IMG/VR virus record: IMGVR_UViG_2700989496_000004
Reading direction: 5' to 3' (one strand)
DNA from: a virus
Lineage: Duplodnaviria; Heunggongvirae; Uroviricota; Caudoviricetes
DNA: 37,032 nt
This document shows positions 7,746 through 20,958 of the stretch, piece after piece. Position 1 is the stretch's first letter, and each line of letters begins with the position of its first letter. Under the pieces are notes generated by a model. It was not told the DNA's origin, made no database searches, and was given only the letters and a program-made list of their open reading frames with translations. A program made the position numbers and the translations under genes.

Positions 7746-8626
7746 ACACTCCTCGTCAGTATTCTGGCGGCCATTGCACTTAATCCCGGAGACATGCGGT
7801 TGAATGCTGTGCCGACGGCGTTAAGCTGCCCGGAAACGGTATCCAGAGCACCTGCAATATTTCTTTTGTCCACACCACTCAGCGCAGACTGTGCCTGCTG
7901 TACATACGTGGCTGCTTCGCTGGCTGTTCTGGCCAGACTGATGGCATCGGGCATGGATTCAGAGAGTGCGTTAAACGCCGGAACACTTTTCCCCAGAGCC
8001 CCGGAGATATTACCCAGTCCGCTCATCAGCCCCGGCACACGGGTCAGTGCGACAACGGGGTTATCCTTCATTTTCTGTGTCACCCGAACGGCGCTGATAG
8101 TGGTCTGGAGTACAGACTGCGCCTGTTTCGCATAGTTGACGCCGTTGCGGATGAACTGCGCCACCCCTGAAGGTGAAGGTATGGCACCGGAGACCGCCCC
8201 GACACCCGGGAGCTTCGTGCGTATTGCCGGTGGTTGCAGAGGATTTTTCGGGTCACCGGTGTATTCCCGGAGAGACACGGTGGCACTGACAGCCAGCACG
8301 TTGCCGGTACTGTCAGTCTGCTCGCTGGTTGCAGTCACATCGGTGATCACGAACCAGCCGCGATAGTCACCGTTGCCGAAGACCAGCGCCAGTGCCTGAT
8401 GGGCTTTCATGGCTGTTCGCAGTCTCGCCAGCTCCACATCGGGTACACAATAATGCTGATGGAAAACCAGAGTTATCTGGATTTCGTCCAGCCTGTCGCC
8501 GACGAACTGCAGACCAGGCTTACCCCCGATGCGGGCATGCTCCGCATAATCGACGCCGAACGTGGCCTCGAAGCCGTCCCAGTAGGTAATCAGCTCAAAC
8601 TCAATATCACCCAGTACGGCAAACAT
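7742..8626 (-). CDS. Tail-associated protein (gpU / DNA-circulation N-domain-like)
   Basis: 294 aa immediately downstream of the tape measure gene. N-terminus MFAVLGDIEFELITYWDGFE...LQFVG resembles gpU-type proteins as recalled. Confidence 0.5.
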   Translation of the reverse strand: MFAVLGDIEFELITYWDGFEATFGVDYAEHARIGGKPGLQFVGDRLDEIQITLVFHQHYCVPDVELARLRTAMKAHQALALVFGNGDYRGWFVITDVTATSEQTDSTGNVLAVSATVSLREYTGDPKNPLQPPAIRTKLPGVGAVSGAIPSPSGVAQFIRNGVNYAKQAQSVLQTTISAVRVTQKMKDNPVVALTRVPGLMSGLGNISGALGKSVPAFNALSESMPDAISLARTASEAATYVQQAQSALSGVDKRNIAGALDTVSGQLNAVGTAFNRMSPGLSAMAARILTRSV

Positions 8627-11577
8627 CAGCGGTACTCCTTACGTTGTTTCTGAGCCAGCAGACGCTCCAGCATTTTTTCCAGCTCATGCAGACTCATATT
8701 CAGGGCACCAGTCAGTCCTGCAGGCGCTGTGGTTTCCCTGCCATTGAGGAAAAACTGAGGATTAAAGCTGACCTGGATACCACCAGACGTTCCACCGCCG
8801 GTTGCAGCTGCACCACGGCCTGAATATCCGGCAGCCAGGATTTCAGGCGAGGGGATACGGGGAACATCCGGTGTCATCTCATTTGCCAGACGTTGCCCTG
8901 GTAAAATCGATGCCCGGGTGGAGAGCGGAATAGCGGGCATGGAAGACAAACTATTGATTACGGCTCCGATCGCATTTTTAGCAGACGACATAAACCCATT
9001 GATATCGGGCAACGGCATACTGAAGCGAACACCTGAAGTGTTATCCCGTATTTCTGGCCCCTGAATGCTCACGGGCATTCTGGGGAGCAGTTCACTGGCC
9101 ATTCGCTGCCCGGCCAGAGCTGCAAGCGGAGTGGTCCGCTGCAGGCCAATGGCGGCCCCCTGCGCGATATTGTCACCAAAGCCCATAAACACGCGGCTCG
9201 GCGAATGAATGCCCAGCTTTTCGCTGAACCAGCCACTGATGCTGTCGCCCATTCCGGTTACACTGGATTTGAGCGACTCCCATTTGTTTTTGATACCGTT
9301 AATCAGACCATCGACAAGATGGCCACCGAAGTCGGTAAACTTTGCCGGCAGATCAACACCAAGATATTTCAGCGCAGCTGCAAAGGCTTTATAGAGCAGA
9401 CCTGCCGGCGACCAGTTAATCAGCAGCTTACCAGTTCCCGCGATACCGCCGTTAAAGGCTTCCTGAATGTCAGCCCAGCATTGTTTAAACCAGCTACTGA
9501 TGCTGTCACCCATTCCGGTTACACTGGATTTGAGCGACCCCCATTTGTTTTTGATACCGTTAATCAAACCGTCGATAAGATGGCCACCGAAGTCGGTGAA
9601 CTTTGCCGGCAGAGTAACGCCGAAATATTTCAGCGCAGCCGCAAAGGCTTTATAGAGCAGGCCTGCCGGCGACCAGTTAATCAGCAGCTTACCAGTTCCC
9701 GCGATACCGCCGTTAAAGGCTTCCTGAATGTCAGCCCAGCGCTGTTTAAACCAGCCACTGACTGCCCCCCAGTTGCGGTAGATAAGGTAAGCTGCTGCCG
9801 CGACAGCGGTGATAACGAGACCGATGGGATTCATCATCAGCGCTCGCCCAATCCAGAGAACGGCACGTGCAGCGCTCATAAAACCGCGAACGAGGCTGCC
9901 CGCCAGAACTTTGCTGAGTTTCAGTCCTCCGCTGGTCAGTCGGCTGAATCCAGTGACAAGCCAGCGTAATTTGCCACCTTCTCCGAGTGCGGTAGTCAGT
10001 CGATGCCAGTTGGTCCGGAGTAAAACAGCAGTTTTCCAGACGTTCACAAAGGGGGAAATAAGGAGATTCAGCCCCAGTTTGAGACCAACAGTCGCTATCT
10101 TAATCGCAAGGAGCGCACTGATGAGCTTAAAAGCCCCACTGACAAATTGCGGGTGAGTCGCCACCCAGTGTTTTGTCCCCTGAATGAGTGGGAGCAAGTC
10201 CTGAGTCAGAGAAATAAAAGATGGAGCTAATTGATCGCCCAGCGTAATTGCCAGATCGCGACTGCTGACCATAAGTGTTTTAGTGGCTTCAAGGGGAGAT
10301 TTCAGCCGCTGATCATAAGCACTGGCAAGCAAATCGTTATCCGCAGCCCTGAGAGCACCGGCACGGATCTCTCGATATCTGTCCATGTTGGCCAGCATCG
10401 GGCGGATAAATGCCATGACCTGCATATCCGCGAACATATCGCCCAGACCAAAGTTTTTCGCCAGAGCCTGAAGTGCCTCATCTCTTGCCGTATCATTCTT
10501 TATTTTCATGGCTGATTTGAAGCCGGCCAGCGCTTCGGGGCTTTTGGCATTGAGGTAACGTTCTATAACACTCAACATCCCTTCAATCGGAGAGATCCCC
10601 GCAGCTTTATAACTCGCAATAGATCCCTGCAAATCAATACCCAGATCAGCAAACTGTTTCTGAGTATCGCGGGCAAAAATTTTGGTAAGAAAGTTTTTAA
10701 AATTATTGGCTGCTTCGTCGGTGGAACCTGCACCGATTTTTGCTATCTGGAGACTGGCCCCGATTTCAGCAACAGCCTCTTTTCCACTGGCAATACCCGC
10801 CATCATTGGGGCCAGGGACTGCATCCACTTGACCTGATCCGGGATTTCAAATGACCCCTGGTCACCGGCATAAGCCATAATATTCTGAACGGCACCAAAA
10901 TCTCTGGCCGCGCCTTTCAGGGAGTTTTGCCAGACTGCGGCCACTTTTGCCCAGTCCTGAGCAGACGTGCGTGTTGCCGTTGCCGCGCGGGCAATATCCG
11001 GCATCAGAAAACCGATATCTGACACATTATCAATATTGTCGCTGATGAGTGAACCCATCGCCTCCTGCAGCTCATCCTGATACTGATTGTATTTAAGCGC
11101 CCAGCCTTTTATCTGTCCGGCAAGTGCATCCCGCGTTTTATTGTCATATTTTGCGGTGATCGACATATCAATCATTTTGTCCTGAAAAGACATGGACTGC
11201 TGAACGGCAGGGGAAACCGTATGATAAACAGTCTGTGCCATGCCATACGCTTCAATCCCCTGACCATACAGCGCCATGCGGTTAGCTTTCAGCGCATCAC
11301 TGGTAGCGGATGCCGCTGACAGACGGCGCTGCTGGCGCTCAATTTGCTCCATGGTGCGGCTTACCCGCAGCAGCTCGCTGTTGAGATGCTGCATCCGGGA
11401 AGAACCCAGTTGACCATAACGTTCTGTTGCACGGGTTAAAGCGTTCTGACGTTCCTGCAGGCGGCGTGAGGTATCGCTCAGGGAATCAAGCGCACGGCGG
11501 GTACCGCTCATTGCAGAACGGAATGTGCTGCCAATCATCCCGCCGATAACAACGCCGACTGAAAACTGTCCCGACAT
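8626..11577 (-). CDS. Tail tape measure protein
   Basis: 983 aa, hydrophobic/Gly-rich segments, internal 86-aa tandem duplication, located after the chaperone pair and before baseplate genes. Confidence 0.9.
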   Translation of the reverse strand: MSGQFSVGVVIGGMIGSTFRSAMSGTRRALDSLSDTSRRLQERQNALTRATERYGQLGSSRMQHLNSELLRVSRTMEQIERQQRRLSAASATSDALKANRMALYGQGIEAYGMAQTVYHTVSPAVQQSMSFQDKMIDMSITAKYDNKTRDALAGQIKGWALKYNQYQDELQEAMGSLISDNIDNVSDIGFLMPDIARAATATRTSAQDWAKVAAVWQNSLKGAARDFGAVQNIMAYAGDQGSFEIPDQVKWMQSLAPMMAGIASGKEAVAEIGASLQIAKIGAGSTDEAANNFKNFLTKIFARDTQKQFADLGIDLQGSIASYKAAGISPIEGMLSVIERYLNAKSPEALAGFKSAMKIKNDTARDEALQALAKNFGLGDMFADMQVMAFIRPMLANMDRYREIRAGALRAADNDLLASAYDQRLKSPLEATKTLMVSSRDLAITLGDQLAPSFISLTQDLLPLIQGTKHWVATHPQFVSGAFKLISALLAIKIATVGLKLGLNLLISPFVNVWKTAVLLRTNWHRLTTALGEGGKLRWLVTGFSRLTSGGLKLSKVLAGSLVRGFMSAARAVLWIGRALMMNPIGLVITAVAAAAYLIYRNWGAVSGWFKQRWADIQEAFNGGIAGTGKLLINWSPAGLLYKAFAAALKYFGVTLPAKFTDFGGHLIDGLINGIKNKWGSLKSSVTGMGDSISSWFKQCWADIQEAFNGGIAGTGKLLINWSPAGLLYKAFAAALKYLGVDLPAKFTDFGGHLVDGLINGIKNKWESLKSSVTGMGDSISGWFSEKLGIHSPSRVFMGFGDNIAQGAAIGLQRTTPLAALAGQRMASELLPRMPVSIQGPEIRDNTSGVRFSMPLPDINGFMSSAKNAIGAVINSLSSMPAIPLSTRASILPGQRLANEMTPDVPRIPSPEILAAGYSGRGAAATGGGTSGGIQVSFNPQFFLNGRETTAPAGLTGALNMSLHELEKMLERLLAQKQRKEYR
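9229..9744. repeat. 258-bp tandem duplication (2 copies plus the start of a third) inside the tape measure gene
   Basis: aaccagcc/tactgatgctgtc...cccattccggttacactggatttgagcga recurs with a 258-bp period. The encoded 86-aa units differ at about 6 residues. Confidence 0.85.
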
Positions 11578-11652
11578 AGTGGTTAACCTCCGGGGAAGGT
11601 GAAAAGACGTGAGGGGATAACGCAGAACAGCCGCTACTGGCGGCTGTCTGTA

Positions 11653-11910
11653 CTATGATTTGTCGCCGTACTCGCTTTTGATTTGCTCTTCAGCCTGCTC
11701 CAGCCACATCTCCAGATCGTCAGTATCGAGGGCATCAATCTCCCCCGGCTGAAACCGGAACCATCTCGCCAGCAGCCCCTGCGCCTGCGTCAGCGCCCTG
11801 GTTGCTCTCACCCATCCCCGTGATGAGCTGAAATCGTTTCTGTAACTGCAGGTAATCAGCCAGATCCATATTGTCGAGATCCTCCGGGAGAAGACCAGTA
11901 CTGCGGGCAA
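11653..11910 (-). CDS. Overlapping extension ORF, possible frameshift product (E'-like)
   Basis: 85-codon ORF in the +1 frame relative to the chaperone, overlapping its 3' half and ending 76 bp before the tape measure start. C-terminus ...DTDDLEMWLEQAEEQIKSEYGDKS. Confidence 0.4.
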   Translation of the reverse strand: MPAVLVFSRRISTIWIWLITCSYRNDFSSSRGWVRATRALTQAQGLLARWFRFQPGEIDALDTDDLEMWLEQAEEQIKSEYGDKS

Positions 11911-12070
11911 TCAGCGGTTCGTCCCAGTCTGCCGGGTTTTTGCTGATTTTGCGCACCTGCTTCAGGTCTTTTACCGTCAGGCGTTTCAGTTCAACCAGCT
12001 CAATTCTGGTGCCTGCAGCAGTGGTGAAGGGATAAGACAATTTAAAAGTATCGGATGGGGTCTGTGACAT
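11735..12070 (-). CDS. Putative tail assembly chaperone (gpE / Mu gp41-like)
   Basis: 111 aa directly upstream of the tape measure gene, acidic Gly/Ala-rich C-terminus, overlapped by an extension ORF. Confidence 0.55.
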   Translation of the reverse strand: MSQTPSDTFKLSYPFTTAAGTRIELVELKRLTVKDLKQVRKISKNPADWDEPLIARSTGLLPEDLDNMDLADYLQLQKRFQLITGMGESNQGADAGAGAAGEMVPVSAGGD

Positions 12071-12167
12071 GATTGTGCTCCTGTGTAAGTTCAGGGCAGT
12101 ATGTCGGGAGAAGCGCGTGACGGATATTAAAGGAGATTAAGAAGAAGGGGCCGGAGCCCCTGTGATG

Positions 12168-12449
12168 TCAGCAAGTGCGAAACCCCTTGCAGTTACGCAG
12201 GAAAGCGATGAGAAGCGTCTTTCCCTCAGATTTGCCGATGCCGGAGAACCAGTGGTCGGGAGGCTCCCATGCTTCAATCAAATCCGCCAGTTTGCGGGCC
12301 TTTGAACGTGTGCAGTCAATCGGGTCATTGGTTTTACGGGTATTAAAAAGGGTTTCCACCCCCGGAATATCAAGGAGGGTAAACCACGTACCATTTGACA
12401 TGCCCAGTGCCGCACATCGTCCTCCTTTATCCGTCAGTTCAACACTCAC
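12168..12449 (-). CDS. Hypothetical protein (possible moron between tail tube and chaperone)
   Basis: 93 codons with a GTG start 2 nt after the tube stop, weak GGGGG ribosome-binding site. Followed (minus sense) by hairpin GGGGCTCCGGCCCC and a T-rich tract at 12150-12163. Confidence 0.4.
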   Translation of the reverse strand: MSVELTDKGGRCAALGMSNGTWFTLLDIPGVETLFNTRKTNDPIDCTRSKARKLADLIEAWEPPDHWFSGIGKSEGKTLLIAFLRNCKGFRTC

Positions 12450-12451
12450 CG

Positions 12452-12973
12452 TCAGCCCCCGATATTGATACGGTAGTCAGTCAGTTGATCAACACCGCCG
12501 ACCCGGAAGATGTTGGCCAGATAGTCCAGTTGCAGCAGCTCTTCACCATCCAGTACCTGTCTGATATACGTGCAGGTGAAGCTACTGGAGAACTCGGCGT
12601 TCTCGTGCTGTTTGAACGTCCCCAGCGGGTTCTTCTTGAACATAATCGTCAGGAAGGTGACCAGCGGGATTTCGTCAATCAGCCCCTGCGAGCTGTAGCG
12701 CTGGACGCTGGAACGACACTGCAGTGCCAGCGACCTGTACGGGTTCGCGGCAGACAGCATCGCATCGCGGTAAAAGCTGTTCCATTTGATTTCGCCTTCC
12801 AGTTTGTCAAAACCAGCCGGGAGTTCCACCTTACCCACCATCCCCAGCGCCTTGTGTTCCTGCATAATCATGGAGACATCGGGGAGTTTAACTTCCTCAG
12901 CCCGTCCCAGCAGGTTAGTACCATCCAGATAGATGTTGGCATTCGTGATGCGGTTTATCTCAATCTTTGACAT
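12452..12973 (-). CDS. Tail tube protein (contractile tail)
   Basis: 173 aa immediately after the sheath gene with start overlapping the sheath stop. Confidence 0.75.
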   Translation of the reverse strand: MSKIEINRITNANIYLDGTNLLGRAEEVKLPDVSMIMQEHKALGMVGKVELPAGFDKLEGEIKWNSFYRDAMLSAANPYRSLALQCRSSVQRYSSQGLIDEIPLVTFLTIMFKKNPLGTFKQHENAEFSSSFTCTYIRQVLDGEELLQLDYLANIFRVGGVDQLTDYRINIGG

Positions 12974-14400
12974 CAGTTGCCCCCTTTCAGGGTTAACAGG
13001 TATTCCGAGGTGATCTCAGTCTCAAACGTCAGTCGCTCCAGCGGCGGTGGTGGCGTATATTTGTAGCTCAGCAACAGGTGCCCGGCGGCCAGCTCCGTCT
13101 CCGGATTGCGGGCCGGATCAAACCAGCAACGGAAGCCCAGTACCGCACCATCACCAGTCATTTTGCGACCGTAGGCGTTGACCGACTCCGTCAGTGCATC
13201 AATCAGCGCCTGAGTAATCGGCATGTCGATGTACTGCTGGCTGAAATAACGAATGGACTCGTTGATCACATCACCGGTGCGGCGAACGTTCTCAAAGTTA
13301 CGCATATGGGTGACCGTTGGCCATGCTGCCGTCCGGTTACCCCACAGACGAAGGCCGCTGCCGTAACTGCTGAATACCGTGGTGATCCCCTGTTCGTTAA
13401 GCAGGTTCACCTCACTCTGCGGGTCATCAATCATCGCGGACAGCTGGCGCTCCACGCCGGTGATCCCCAGAATCTCCTGATTGGAGGATGACCACCAGTA
13501 GCCCTTGTCCAGATCGACTCTGGCACGCAGACCTGCTGCACGCTGGCTGAGCGGCTCCAGACGCTCTGTGTTTGTCACCGGGTCATATACCTTCACATGC
13601 GGATAGCACAGACGGACGCGGTCGGAGCTGGTATTGAAGTTGATGGTGCCTTCCGGGCCACGACCTGCCAGAGCCTGTGCAAAGGTGGTACCGACAGGCG
13701 CATCAATGTAGGTTACCGCGCCCAGCTTCTCTGCCATGGCGATAAGCTCAACTGCGACACTCTTCTGGGTGCAGAACACCGGCGCAATCAGAATTTTGGC
13801 GAAATAGCCGTACAGGTTGAAGCTGTCGTTAAGCAGCTTCATGCCGGTTCGGTTTCCGGCGCTGTTCACCCCGCCGATGATGTCCGCCGCAGTCACCTTC
13901 GACGGGTCCGCGTACTCATAGCTCACCTTCACGCTGCCACCGGCCTCAATAGCCTTGCCCAGGTTCGTGAGCACACCCGCCTGCGCATCAACACGGTAGT
14001 CCGTGTTCGCCGTGTGGGTGGTGCTGCCTTCACTGTTTTTCACCACCACATTAGCGACAACCGGATGCGCCAGTCTGGCCTGCCCTGTCGATTTGTCAAA
14101 GGTAACCACCTCATCCTCGATCGCCGTTTTATGTTTCGCCGGGTCGAGGACGTTAATGACCAGAACGGTGCCTGCACCATGGTCATAAATCGCATCCAGC
14201 GCCTGCGGAATGGTAAAGCCGGTGAACTGGCTGCCAAATGCCGCTGCGTCTTTCTCAGACAGGCACTGTACCAGCGTATTGACATCCCCCATCGGGGCGG
14301 TACCAATCAGGCCAATAACGGCAGATTTCACCGTTTTAACCGGGCGGGCACCGTTTTCCACCTCAATGGTTTCGGGACCATGCAGATAGTTAGCTGCCAT
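12973..14400 (-). CDS. Tail sheath protein
   Basis: 475 aa, typical size and position for a sheath gene upstream of the tube gene. Confidence 0.85.
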   Translation of the reverse strand: MAANYLHGPETIEVENGARPVKTVKSAVIGLIGTAPMGDVNTLVQCLSEKDAAAFGSQFTGFTIPQALDAIYDHGAGTVLVINVLDPAKHKTAIEDEVVTFDKSTGQARLAHPVVANVVVKNSEGSTTHTANTDYRVDAQAGVLTNLGKAIEAGGSVKVSYEYADPSKVTAADIIGGVNSAGNRTGMKLLNDSFNLYGYFAKILIAPVFCTQKSVAVELIAMAEKLGAVTYIDAPVGTTFAQALAGRGPEGTINFNTSSDRVRLCYPHVKVYDPVTNTERLEPLSQRAAGLRARVDLDKGYWWSSSNQEILGITGVERQLSAMIDDPQSEVNLLNEQGITTVFSSYGSGLRLWGNRTAAWPTVTHMRNFENVRRTGDVINESIRYFSQQYIDMPITQALIDALTESVNAYGRKMTGDGAVLGFRCWFDPARNPETELAAGHLLLSYKYTPPPPLERLTFETEITSEYLLTLKGGN

Positions 14401-19481: not shown

Positions 19482-20958
19482 GCAGACGTCCCCGGATATT
19501 TGCCACAAAGAGAATGCGGGCCAGCCGCTCCTGCAGATCGTCCGTGTTCATCTGAGGGTAGAGCTCCGCCAGTTCGCCCAGCAGCTCAGACGGGTTAACC
19601 CCGTTTTCGACCCGCCTGAACAGAGGTGCCAGGACGGGTTCCAGCGTGCCATTTAACGCGCCTCCGTTCATCAGAATGTCCAGCGCGTCGTCAAGCTGCT
19701 GCTGAGCCTGAATATCAGCATCAATCGCCTCGGCAAATGACAGCGGCAGCATGTTATTCTGGCGTTCCGACGGTGGTGTCTCGTCAATATCGCCGTCCTG
19801 CAGTTGGTACTCACGCTTGAAGTACTGCGGGGTCAGACGCAGACCCGCCCGGGTGAGTTTTTCGTCGCGGGTGGCACGGGTGTCATCAATGGCCTCCTGT
19901 TCCCACATGGCCCAGACCGGACACGGCACATCGCCGAAGTTCAGGGTGACCACCGTTCTGATGACCTGATTCACTGCCGCCTGAATGATGTCCGCATCCG
20001 CATCGCGGATATCAGCCGTTACCTCCAGCCCGGCCTGTGCAGAGGCCTTGTTACTGTTCGCTTCCGTGGTCTGATTCTGACCGAGTAATGCAATGGAGAT
20101 CTCACTGCGTGACAGTGTGATCAGCTCGCGAAATACCTCGCTGCTGTCTGCCTTGCCATCCGCTGCCCTGAGCTCAATACTGCTGTCATCGGGGATGGCG
20201 GCCACCGCGTCCTCCACCATCTGCTCCATGGAGTCCAGCAGTTTTTCAATCTCTGCATCATTTGCGCCCCTCGGGTGCTTACCGATCACCCACGGGGAGC
20301 CAAACTTTTCGGCAAAGCGGAGCCAGAATTTCATCCCGCCTTTCTTGAAGGCGACCGGCCAGAAGCACATGGACAGGTCCGGGAAACCGTAAGGATTGTC
20401 ATACGAGGCATCCTGTGCCGGCACCACGAATTTTGACGGTGACAGCAGCTCACCCTCCACACCCGCATCACGCGCCCGAAAGCGCAGGCAGTTGTCCGTA
20501 TCAAACTGAAACCACTCAGGCGGTTTGCCGACAATATCCGTCACCGCCCACGACCTGACCGAACGGCCCCACATGATTTCACAGGGCTGATACCCGTAGA
20601 GCACGGCATCGCTCATTTCACCGATGATGCGGGACAGATCCAGATCGTCGAGCATGTCGCGGATGAAACGGAAGACCCGGGCAGAGGCGTGACCACGCTC
20701 CAGTCCACGCTCCAGCGATTTGAGCGCTGCTTTACGTCTGCGGATACAGCCCCCGACCAGCGGGTCGGTGCGCAGTTCGCGGTAGATACGGATATCCCGT
20801 CCCTGAGCCTTGAGAATGGGATCAGGATTGGGCAGATACATGCCCAGTCCGTAAAAGTCGATCGCGCGGCTGCGGGAGGCAATCTGCGCGGTCAGTGATT
20901 TCTGAGGCTCAGAAAAAGCAACAAATTCATCGGGTGAAACCCAGATACCCCTCGCCAT
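19462..20958 (-). CDS. Portal protein (Mu gp29-like)
   Basis: 498 aa, start overlapping the large terminase stop, typical portal size and position. Confidence 0.8.
   Translation of the reverse strand: MARGIWVSPDEFVAFSEPQKSLTAQIASRSRAIDFYGLGMYLPNPDPILKAQGRDIRIYRELRTDPLVGGCIRRRKAALKSLERGLERGHASARVFRFIRDMLDDLDLSRIIGEMSDAVLYGYQPCEIMWGRSVRSWAVTDIVGKPPEWFQFDTDNCLRFRARDAGVEGELLSPSKFVVPAQDASYDNPYGFPDLSMCFWPVAFKKGGMKFWLRFAEKFGSPWVIGKHPRGANDAEIEKLLDSMEQMVEDAVAAIPDDSSIELRAADGKADSSEVFRELITLSRSEISIALLGQNQTTEANSNKASAQAGLEVTADIRDADADIIQAAVNQVIRTVVTLNFGDVPCPVWAMWEQEAIDDTRATRDEKLTRAGLRLTPQYFKREYQLQDGDIDETPPSERQNNMLPLSFAEAIDADIQAQQQLDDALDILMNGGALNGTLEPVLAPLFRRVENGVNPSELLGELAELYPQMNTDDLQERLARILFVANIRGRLHERDNG

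Follow-up and report, generated by a model that had tools for sequence, protein, structure and literature searches.

The E/E' gene pair is a candidate for +1 frameshifting

The DNA analysed here is a 37,032-nucleotide (nt) stretch of tailed-phage sequence (IMG/VR record IMGVR_UViG_2700989496_000004; the window, below, means this whole stretch). It is a BcepMu-like prophage that combines a Mu-type head with a P2-type tail. On its minus strand, gene E is overlapped by a second open reading frame (ORF) in another frame, the extension, which includes the E' coding part. The pair corresponds to E and E+E' of phage P2, and it is very probably a tail assembly chaperone pair linked by programmed frameshifting. 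Comparison with related loci suggested that the shift is probably a +1 slip at a UUU_C tetranucleotide, located where the conserved E domain ends. The coordinates of all features are collected in Table 1.

Both parts were compared with profile databases. The E ORF (12070..11735) is preceded by an AGGAG Shine-Dalgarno sequence. Its product matched PF10109 (Phage_TAC_7, 'tail assembly chaperone proteins E, or 41 or 14') with an E-value of 5.5e-21 and 74.8 bits, against a cut-off of 25 bits, and phrog_166 with an E-value of 2.8e-32. PF10109 was also matched by 23/23 family representatives. E' matched phrog_8286 (7.9e-34) and gave a weak match to PF06528, 'Phage P2 GpE', a Pfam family derived from the E' segment of P2; at an E-value of 0.0015 and 18.4 bits, this match lay under the 23-bit cut-off. 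Seven of the 23 representatives matched PF06528 at an E-value of 0.01 or less, the best at 1.5e-5.

We also aligned the predicted E+E' fusions of 23 sequences taken from different clusters, in which the Phe at the end of the E domain was invariant. Compared with P2 E+E' by hhalign, this family gave a probability of 84% and an E-value of 7.6e-6 over 122 columns, running across the junction between the two parts. In that alignment, Phe80 and the P2 slip site T_TTT_TTG were no more than two residues apart. Judged from this one profile alignment, which is approximate, both families seem to shift near the same place and on a TTT codon, in opposite directions. A contig scan with E recovered only nine close relatives. 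The scan with P2 E+E' recovered only near-identical P2 copies, and for this reason no P2-side profile was built. None of the solved structures matched the fusion family. A sequence-only reading of the window had proposed an E/E'-type chaperone pair with a +1 or -2 shift, or else an extension translated by another route; the matches to PF10109 and phrog_8286, the weak match to PF06528 and the alignment with P2 E+E' supported the assignment to E/E'.

The frame relationship could be read directly from the codon phases. Codons of E start at coordinates of 1 mod 3 and those of the extension at 0 mod 3, so the extension lies one base downstream on the minus strand, that is, in the +1 (equivalent to -2) frame. 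The sequence-only reading had given the same frame, and had placed the chaperone ORF at 11735-12070 and the extension at 11653-11910. These coordinates and the overlap were correct, with both ORFs on the minus strand. Its observation that the overlap holds no canonical slippery heptamer also stood. Gene E has a single in-phase X_XXY_YYZ motif over its full length, A_AAC_CCG (codon 44, 11939), which is outside the overlap and would give the wrong frame. With the extension in the +1 frame and no T6G in gene E, the pair lacks the -1 shift at T_TTT_TTG of P2 E / E+E'. The functional part of the extension begins well inside its ORF, and the TTG listed as the start at 11910 is without significance. 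No start codon for E' is conserved across relatives.

Comparative bounds on the position of the shift

We gathered 240 related loci from a viral contig collection with three different E' queries, and located E in each of them by profile. E' was in the +1 frame in 240/240 loci. The same frame was found in KP12, Phi06_2974B, a Salmonella Infantis prophage, Ralstonia YO107_2, Pseudomonas Komp_PAO1_1 and BcepMu. In a P2-like Pasteurella phage, E' was in the -1 frame.

This consistency bears on whether the frame relationship might be an artefact, produced by a sequencing indel or by the decay of a pseudogene in a defective prophage. Several database proteins do differ by single bases at homopolymer runs in E. 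However, the +1 relationship held in all 240 viral loci, from enterobacteria to Burkholderia, in the isolated phages PhiKM, KP12 and BcepMu, and in 641 Escherichia coli genomes, and the +1 frame was under purifying selection. The comparative data have already refuted the artefact, and we assign it practically no probability. An indel whose correction would restore a -1 relationship, one of the outcomes that the sequence-only reading had named as fatal to its proposal, was thereby ruled out.

Stop codons in the relatives confined the shift from both sides. In 21 loci, a +1-frame stop lies 4 codons before the conserved Phe, and in 10 loci a zero-frame stop lies 6-7 codons after it. This leaves a stretch of about ten codons around the Phe for any site common to all loci. 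In every TTT_C locus the +1 frame remained open as far back as the Phe, including those where a stop lies just 4 codons further upstream. Among close relatives, the zero-frame stop of E was found at codon 112, 105 or 91, and the stops at codons 91 and 105 were silent in the +1 frame.

The frame under selection was examined with minor-allele counts at zero-frame positions 1, 2 and 3 in 57 unique enteric sequences. The counts were 457 / 284 / 1157 for E codons 1-79, as expected for selection in the zero frame, and 58 / 14 / 54 for codons 80-87, a mixed pattern with both frames selected. For codons 95-137 they were 233 / 40 / 56, indicating selection in the +1 frame, in which zero-frame position 1 becomes position 3. 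The synonymous-site signal thus passed from the zero to the +1 frame at codons 80-88, and first-position variation was seen after about codon 88. Zero-frame selection covers only about the first 87 codons of E, and the remainder is an unconstrained tail.

Conservation of the UUU_C tetranucleotide

The Phe that ends the E domain is encoded by TTT followed by C in 222/222 of the loci that keep this residue, and TTC was never found. Other Phe codons in the same loci are TTT in 24-55% of cases, and in only 24% in loci of 60-65% G+C content. The conservation of UUU_C (222 TTT, 0 TTC) thus exceeds the expectation from codon usage. When the loci were clustered at 80% identity, 26 of 29 clusters were entirely TTTC. 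Two apparent exceptions carried an insertion, with TTT_C 32 codons downstream.

In all of these loci the tetranucleotide falls inside the interval that the stop codons allow, and it was also singled out by its pairing properties. In 17 loci from 10 clusters, TTT_C was the sole codon in the allowed interval at which cognate re-pairing, +1 or -2, could occur. Within codons 71-91 of the gene E studied here, the only cognate candidates were TTT (codon 80) and GGG (codon 85). Beyond the site at 11833-11830, the +1 frame continues for 58 codons without a stop. A -2 move at TTT would find no pairing partner, and we therefore infer a +1 slip from UUU to UUC. The two directions that the sequence-only reading had left side by side can be graded in this way: the comparative data favour +1 over -2, with the conserved UUU_C as the site. 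It had also suggested that alignment of relatives might reveal a conserved shift site, and UUU_C was found by such a comparison.

At the corresponding site BcepMu has TCC_TTT_CGC. The sequence UUU_Ynn is prone to +1 shifting in bacteria (PMC5009743), and influenza PA-X is produced by a +1 shift on UCC_UUU_CGU (PMC3498833).

The codon preceding the Phe, which would occupy the ribosomal E site during the slip, was conserved as well. Among loci with Arg at this position, 155 use CGA and a single one uses CGG. In E. coli, CGA is a rare codon, at 3.8 per 1000 (table in PMC3498833). Coding does not explain its conservation, because under the proposed model the +1 frame is not read at this position. 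Weak pairing in the E site has been reported to favour +1 shifts. That the conserved rare CGA might act as a stimulator of the shift is only an idea. Downstream of the Phe, the third base of codon 83 never varied in the 57 enteric sequences; A or G at this position would create a +1-frame stop.

Alternative shift sites and an unfused E'

The second cognate candidate is GGG_A at E codon 85, where a +1 slip of tRNA-Gly would give a fusion reading ...QLITG-WVRATR.... All three positions of this GGG were invariant in the 57 unique enteric sequences, and both flanking codons varied. Re-pairing from GGG to GGA, GGC or GGG would always keep a Gly codon, and the +1-frame Trp that follows is conserved across clades. 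In this lineage, the allowed interval holds no cognate +1 site besides TTT_C and this one. However, Salmonella, Ralstonia and BcepMu-type loci have no Gly codon at the aligned position, and the site is missing in the loci in which the zero-frame stop lies 6-7 codons after the Phe. A shift there would also fail to explain the frozen synonymous sites further upstream, namely TTT (222/222), CGA (155/156) and codon 83 at its third base. If the shift is at codon 80, the GGG would be read in both frames, and this dual coding would account for its invariance. We therefore consider GGG_A unlikely as the shared site.

The G5 run beside the E stop (GCC GGG GGA GAT TGA) was first taken as a Mu-like site. 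A shift there could be either -2 (GGA to GGG) or +1 (GGG to GGG), and the fusion would read ...VSAG(G)EIDALD.... Mu has a verified -2 shift on the G run CGG_GGG_CGA. In addition, the run stands at the very end of the overlap, the usual place of lambda-type sites, and cognate re-pairing would be possible in either direction. Database proteins, together with an Erwinia tracheiphila contig in which G5 has become G4, fuse E to E' exactly at this point; these proteins, however, are joined at homopolymer runs and probably reflect assembly indels. The site was rejected because a zero-frame TAG lies seven codons upstream in most relatives, including the KP12 type and Phi06, and in some the zero frame ends at codon 91. 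One related locus (L013) has an interrupted run, and Brenneria, Salmonella, Ralstonia and BcepMu-type loci have none. Moreover, codons 95-108 are under +1-frame selection, with TTC CGG, TTT AGA and TTC AGG being synonymous in that frame, and with a shift at the run the fusion would lack the initial third of the conserved E' domain. The G residues themselves are accounted for by the Pro-Gly-Glu codons of the +1 frame. A shift at this position is thus very improbable.

Two further candidates were discarded. GCA GGG GCT (G4, codon 98) and GGC_GCA (a possible -2 site, codon 97) are excluded by the codon-91 stop in relatives, and are also contradicted by +1-frame synonymous changes in the 'QAQG' codons.

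In-frame fusions of E and E' in a database of 5.8 billion proteins were tried as a guide to the junction. The joins fell at G4, G5 or A5 runs or were scattered, and were uninformative. In Erwinia tracheiphila ICMP 5845 (L018, about 1800-1830) and in database proteins P0001-P0009, the fusions arise through single-base differences at G5, G4 and A5 runs. Viral contigs of the Erwinia-type lineage have a normal G5 run. Such fusions are probably homopolymer assembly errors, although real mutants are possible.

E' might instead be made unfused, as a free small protein of about 45-52 amino acids (aa) from an internal start. RefSeq indeed calls a 45-aa ORF from an ATG in relatives ('GpE family phage tail protein'), and members of phrog_8286 begin at a GTG equivalent to 11812, with GGGGA just upstream. 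Neither start is conserved, however: the ATG of the KP12 type is ACG here, and the GTG of the window is GCA or GCG in the KP12 type. Conservation in the +1 frame reaches upstream of both starts as far as the Phe, and the frame is kept open to the Phe in all TTT_C loci. In addition, the fusion as a whole is colinear with P2 E+E', and the latter is annotated as arising by a frameshift. Independent translation of E' is therefore quite unlikely.

Observations that weigh against a +1 shift at UUU_C

Several observations weigh against the assignment of the shift to UUU_C. One is a clade of 16 loci (L132, L161, L166, L174, L175, L177 and ten more) that has TTG, against TTT in its sister loci, with E' still in the +1 frame. 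The clade carries GAG GTG TTG CGG GAA ATG, an 18-nt block without a single variable position among 15 unique sequences. In four loci of the clade, the allowed interval is devoid of cognate re-pairing codons. Because of this clade, either UUU_C is not strictly universal or another mechanism operates there, perhaps a shift at CGG_G or out-of-frame entry into the A site.

The zero-frame A-site codon, CAG, is not rare, and no Shine-Dalgarno-like element was seen upstream. A conserved downstream RNA structure was not found (alifold values of -0.07 and 0.0 for 92 and 54 unique sequences, respectively), the single-sequence fold had a z-score of -1.9, and Rfam gave no match. In view of the missing rare A-site codon, Shine-Dalgarno-like element and RNA structure, the efficiency of the shift may be low.

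The invariance of TTT could also derive in part from dual coding if the shift took place one to three codons further upstream; a re-pairing codon is absent at those positions. Finally, GGG_A at codon 85 may serve as a second site in the enteric clade.

Proposed mechanism

Under a +1 shift at UUU_C, most ribosomes would stay in the zero frame on E and produce the 111-aa protein, of which only the first ~87 residues would matter. A minority would slip at Phe codon 80, where the peptidyl-tRNA-Phe in the P site would move from UUU to UUC within CGA_UUU_CAG (11836-11828). Translation would then continue in the +1 frame to the stop codon at 11655-11653. The predicted product is a 138-aa E+E' fusion, composed of 80 residues of E and 58 residues of E' (SSSRGW...GDKS).

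Possible functions of the two products are suggested by the analogous lambda G/GT and P2 E/E+E' pairs. The N-terminal part common to both products would coat the tape measure protein, and the rare C-terminal E' part would recruit the tube protein. The slip frequency would then set the ratio of the two products.

A broader, evolutionary scenario concerns the clade with a Mu-type head and a P2-type tail, which includes Bcepmuvirus and relatives from E. coli to Burkholderia. This clade might have switched from the ancestral P2 -1 shift at T_TTT_TTG to a +1 shift at UUU_C, on approximately the same Phe, with the rare and almost invariant E-site CGA as a possible stimulator in many lineages. We regard this scenario as evenly balanced between being right and wrong.

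Genomic context of the pair

The 1-kb region compared (11500-12500 of the window) was 100% identical to Escherichia phage PhiKM. PhiKM is classed in Bcepmuvirus, and its record annotates Mu-type head genes together with P2-type tail genes (E, U, X, D). The E/E' region was present in 641 of 5,426 complete E. coli genomes (about 1 in 8), including ST131 strains, and 573 of these 641 carried it at an identity of at least 99%.

The order of genes on the minus strand is sheath, tube, a 93-aa ORF, E/E', tape measure, U, X and D, the arrangement of a P2-type tail. As in the lambda G/GT paradigm, the pair thus stands downstream of the tube gene and upstream of the tape measure gene. The PhiKM record also labels the equivalent of 8626-11577 as the tape measure protein.

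Table 1. Features of the E/E' locus and its neighbourhood in the window.
Feature	Coordinates	Strand	Remarks
Tail sheath gene	12973-14400	minus	
Tail tube gene (P2 FII type)	12452-12973	minus	PF04985, 2.9e-53; upstream of the E/E' pair
Conserved 93-aa ORF	12168-12449	minus	between tube gene and E; phrog_1239, 4.7e-48
Gene E, tail assembly chaperone	11735..12070	minus	111 aa, zero-frame product; PF10109, phrog_166
Overlapping extension ORF	11910..11653	minus	stop falls 75 nt short of the tape measure ATG (11577)
CGA (Arg79), E-site codon during the proposed slip	11834..11836	minus	possible stimulator
Proposed +1 shift site UUU_C	11830..11833	minus	Phe codon 80 = 11833-11831, then C 11830
E' coding part, +1 frame after the proposed slip	11656..11829	minus	58 codons (SSSRGWVRATRALTQAQGLLARWFRFQPGEIDALDTDDLEMWLEQAEEQIKSEYGDKS); stop 11653-11655
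GGG_A, secondary candidate +1 site in the enteric clade	11815..11818	minus	E codon 85
G5 run (GCC GGG GGA GAT TGA)	11742..11746	minus	beside the E stop; not the conserved shift site
Tape measure gene	8626-11577	minus	983 aa; PF10145, 1.3e-20; directly downstream of the E/E' pair

Some further features of the neighbouring genes were observed. The 93-aa ORF gave a weak match to DUF7739 and is also present in KP12 and the E. coli relatives. The tape measure gene contains a 261-nt tandem duplication at 9227-9761 (2.0 copies, 93% identical), by which 87 aa are repeated. Its product has 983 aa, compared with 821 aa (2,466 nt) in KP12 and the E. coli relatives. The GenBank record of PhiKM has a sequencing gap at the place of the duplication. 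Since the length of the tape measure sets the length of the tail, phages with the 983-aa variant may have a longer tail.

Two hairpins were noted on the minus strand. A G+C-rich one (ACAGCCGC, loop, GCGGCUGU) lies at 11624-11646, between the E' stop and the tape measure start, and the 91-nt intergenic fold around it had a z-score of -3.9. The stem is retained in KP12 and Phi06_2974B, with differing loop sequences. It is not a classical terminator, because no U run follows the stem, and it may affect mRNA stability or translational coupling. The other, AGGGGCUCCGGCCCCU followed by UCUUCUU (12146-12161), is terminator-like and sits within the tail operon, downstream of the 93-aa ORF and upstream of E. 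The evidence for it is weak, as the scan gave two overlapping calls of one hairpin, against 1.2 expected in shuffled sequences.

Current annotation and implications

The fusion is missing from the current annotation. The PhiKM record has 'tail protein E' only, and RefSeq gives either E alone or E with a free-standing 45-aa 'GpE family' ORF. In the BcepMu record (AY539836; L009, 4603-5364), gp42, the E' ORF, is annotated as the equivalent of lambda G, with gp43 as the extension reached by frameshifting. Homology and conservation instead identify gp41 plus gp42 as the BcepMu E/E' pair, with TCC_TTT_CGC as the candidate site in gp41. In the literature covered, which was partial and lacked key papers of 2002 and 2004, we found no published UUU_C +1 shift in BcepMu-like phages.

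With an E+E' model joined at UUU_C, the records of this phage group could be put right, as could those of tailocin-like remnants in Salmonella. The study of recoding would gain a well-conserved case of +1 slippage at UUU_C from bacteria, in which the E-site codon is also conserved to a striking degree. Such a case would show, too, that even a single protein family can retain its requirement for two forms of the chaperone and yet vary the direction of the shift. If the switch of direction proves true, the clade would offer a natural and widespread bacterial counterpart of the PA-X motif UCC_UUU_CGU, tractable for studies of E-site effects on +1 shifts, and the TTG clade would point to a second mechanism without re-pairing. 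The general picture of tail assembly would be unchanged.

Comparison with known frameshifting systems

Tail chaperone frameshifting itself is already known: it was first described for lambda G/GT and occurs in most long-tailed phages. The proposed +1 shift at UUU_C in this phage group would be a further case of it.

In lambda, the founding case, gpG and gpGT are produced at a constant ratio; tail assembly requires them, and they are absent from virions (PMC5009743). The logic of two products with a common N-terminus is shared with the present pair. However, lambda uses a -1 heptamer and has a siphovirus tail, and no sequence similarity was detectable in our searches.

Another close system is gpE / gpE+E' of the P2 FETUD operon, which occupies the same place between the tube (FII) and tape measure (T) genes. 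As in the window, E has the PF10109 domain; the extension in the window is weakly similar to PF06528, and the predicted fusion is colinear with that of P2. In both cases the shift would fall where the E domain ends, at a Phe encoded by TTT. The products are also of similar size, with 91 and 142 aa in P2 (PMC3091744), and 111 aa and a predicted 138 aa here. There are differences as well. P2 shifts by -1 at T_TTT_TTG (annotated at 19685), whereas the present pair would shift by +1 at a UUU_C tetranucleotide in place of the T6G heptamer. Unlike P2, the zero-frame tail after the proposed shift is long (31 codons) and unconstrained, and the match of the window to PF06528 stays below the Pfam cut-off. 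P2 also has no gene where the 93-aa ORF stands in the window.

Mu gp41 resembles the pair in lying upstream of the tape measure gene and in having its extension in the +1/-2 frame, and the Mu-type head is shared. PF10109 is detectable in gp41 (4.6e-5). However, gp41 belongs to PF23746 (8e-34), whereas the window protein gave only PF10109 at an E-value of 0.01 or less, and the Mu extension does not match PF06528. Mu uses a -2 shift on CGG_GGG_CGA, annotated as verified, in which GGG re-pairs on GGG. No such in-phase run is conserved here, and no conserved G run inside the overlap would allow -2 re-pairing of tRNA-Gly.

Tailed phages as a whole use -1, -2 or +1 shifts in their tail chaperone genes (reviewed in PMC5009743 and PMC3498833), and 350 forward shifts are annotated in SEA-PHAGES genomes (PMC10274946). 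The frame that the sequence-only reading had called atypical is therefore so in comparison with the textbook cases of lambda and P2, but not in general, given the -2 shift of Mu and the +1 shifts of other tail chaperones. The +1 shifts in actinobacteriophages, haloarchaeal HSTV-2, Listeria phage PSA and SPP1 affect the same or related tail genes. They involve unrelated protein families and hosts, and we found no description of UUU_C as their site.

A likeness in mechanism is provided by influenza A PA-X and the UUU_Ynn sequences of E. coli, which share the tetranucleotide, the proposed tRNA-Phe move from UUU to UUC and a conserved E-site codon. The BcepMu-type TCC_TTT_CGC is almost the same as the PA-X motif UCC_UUU_CGU. 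Unlike PA-X, the present case would take place on a bacterial ribosome and in a phage gene, and the sequence in the window has CGA in the E site and the common codon CAG in the A site.

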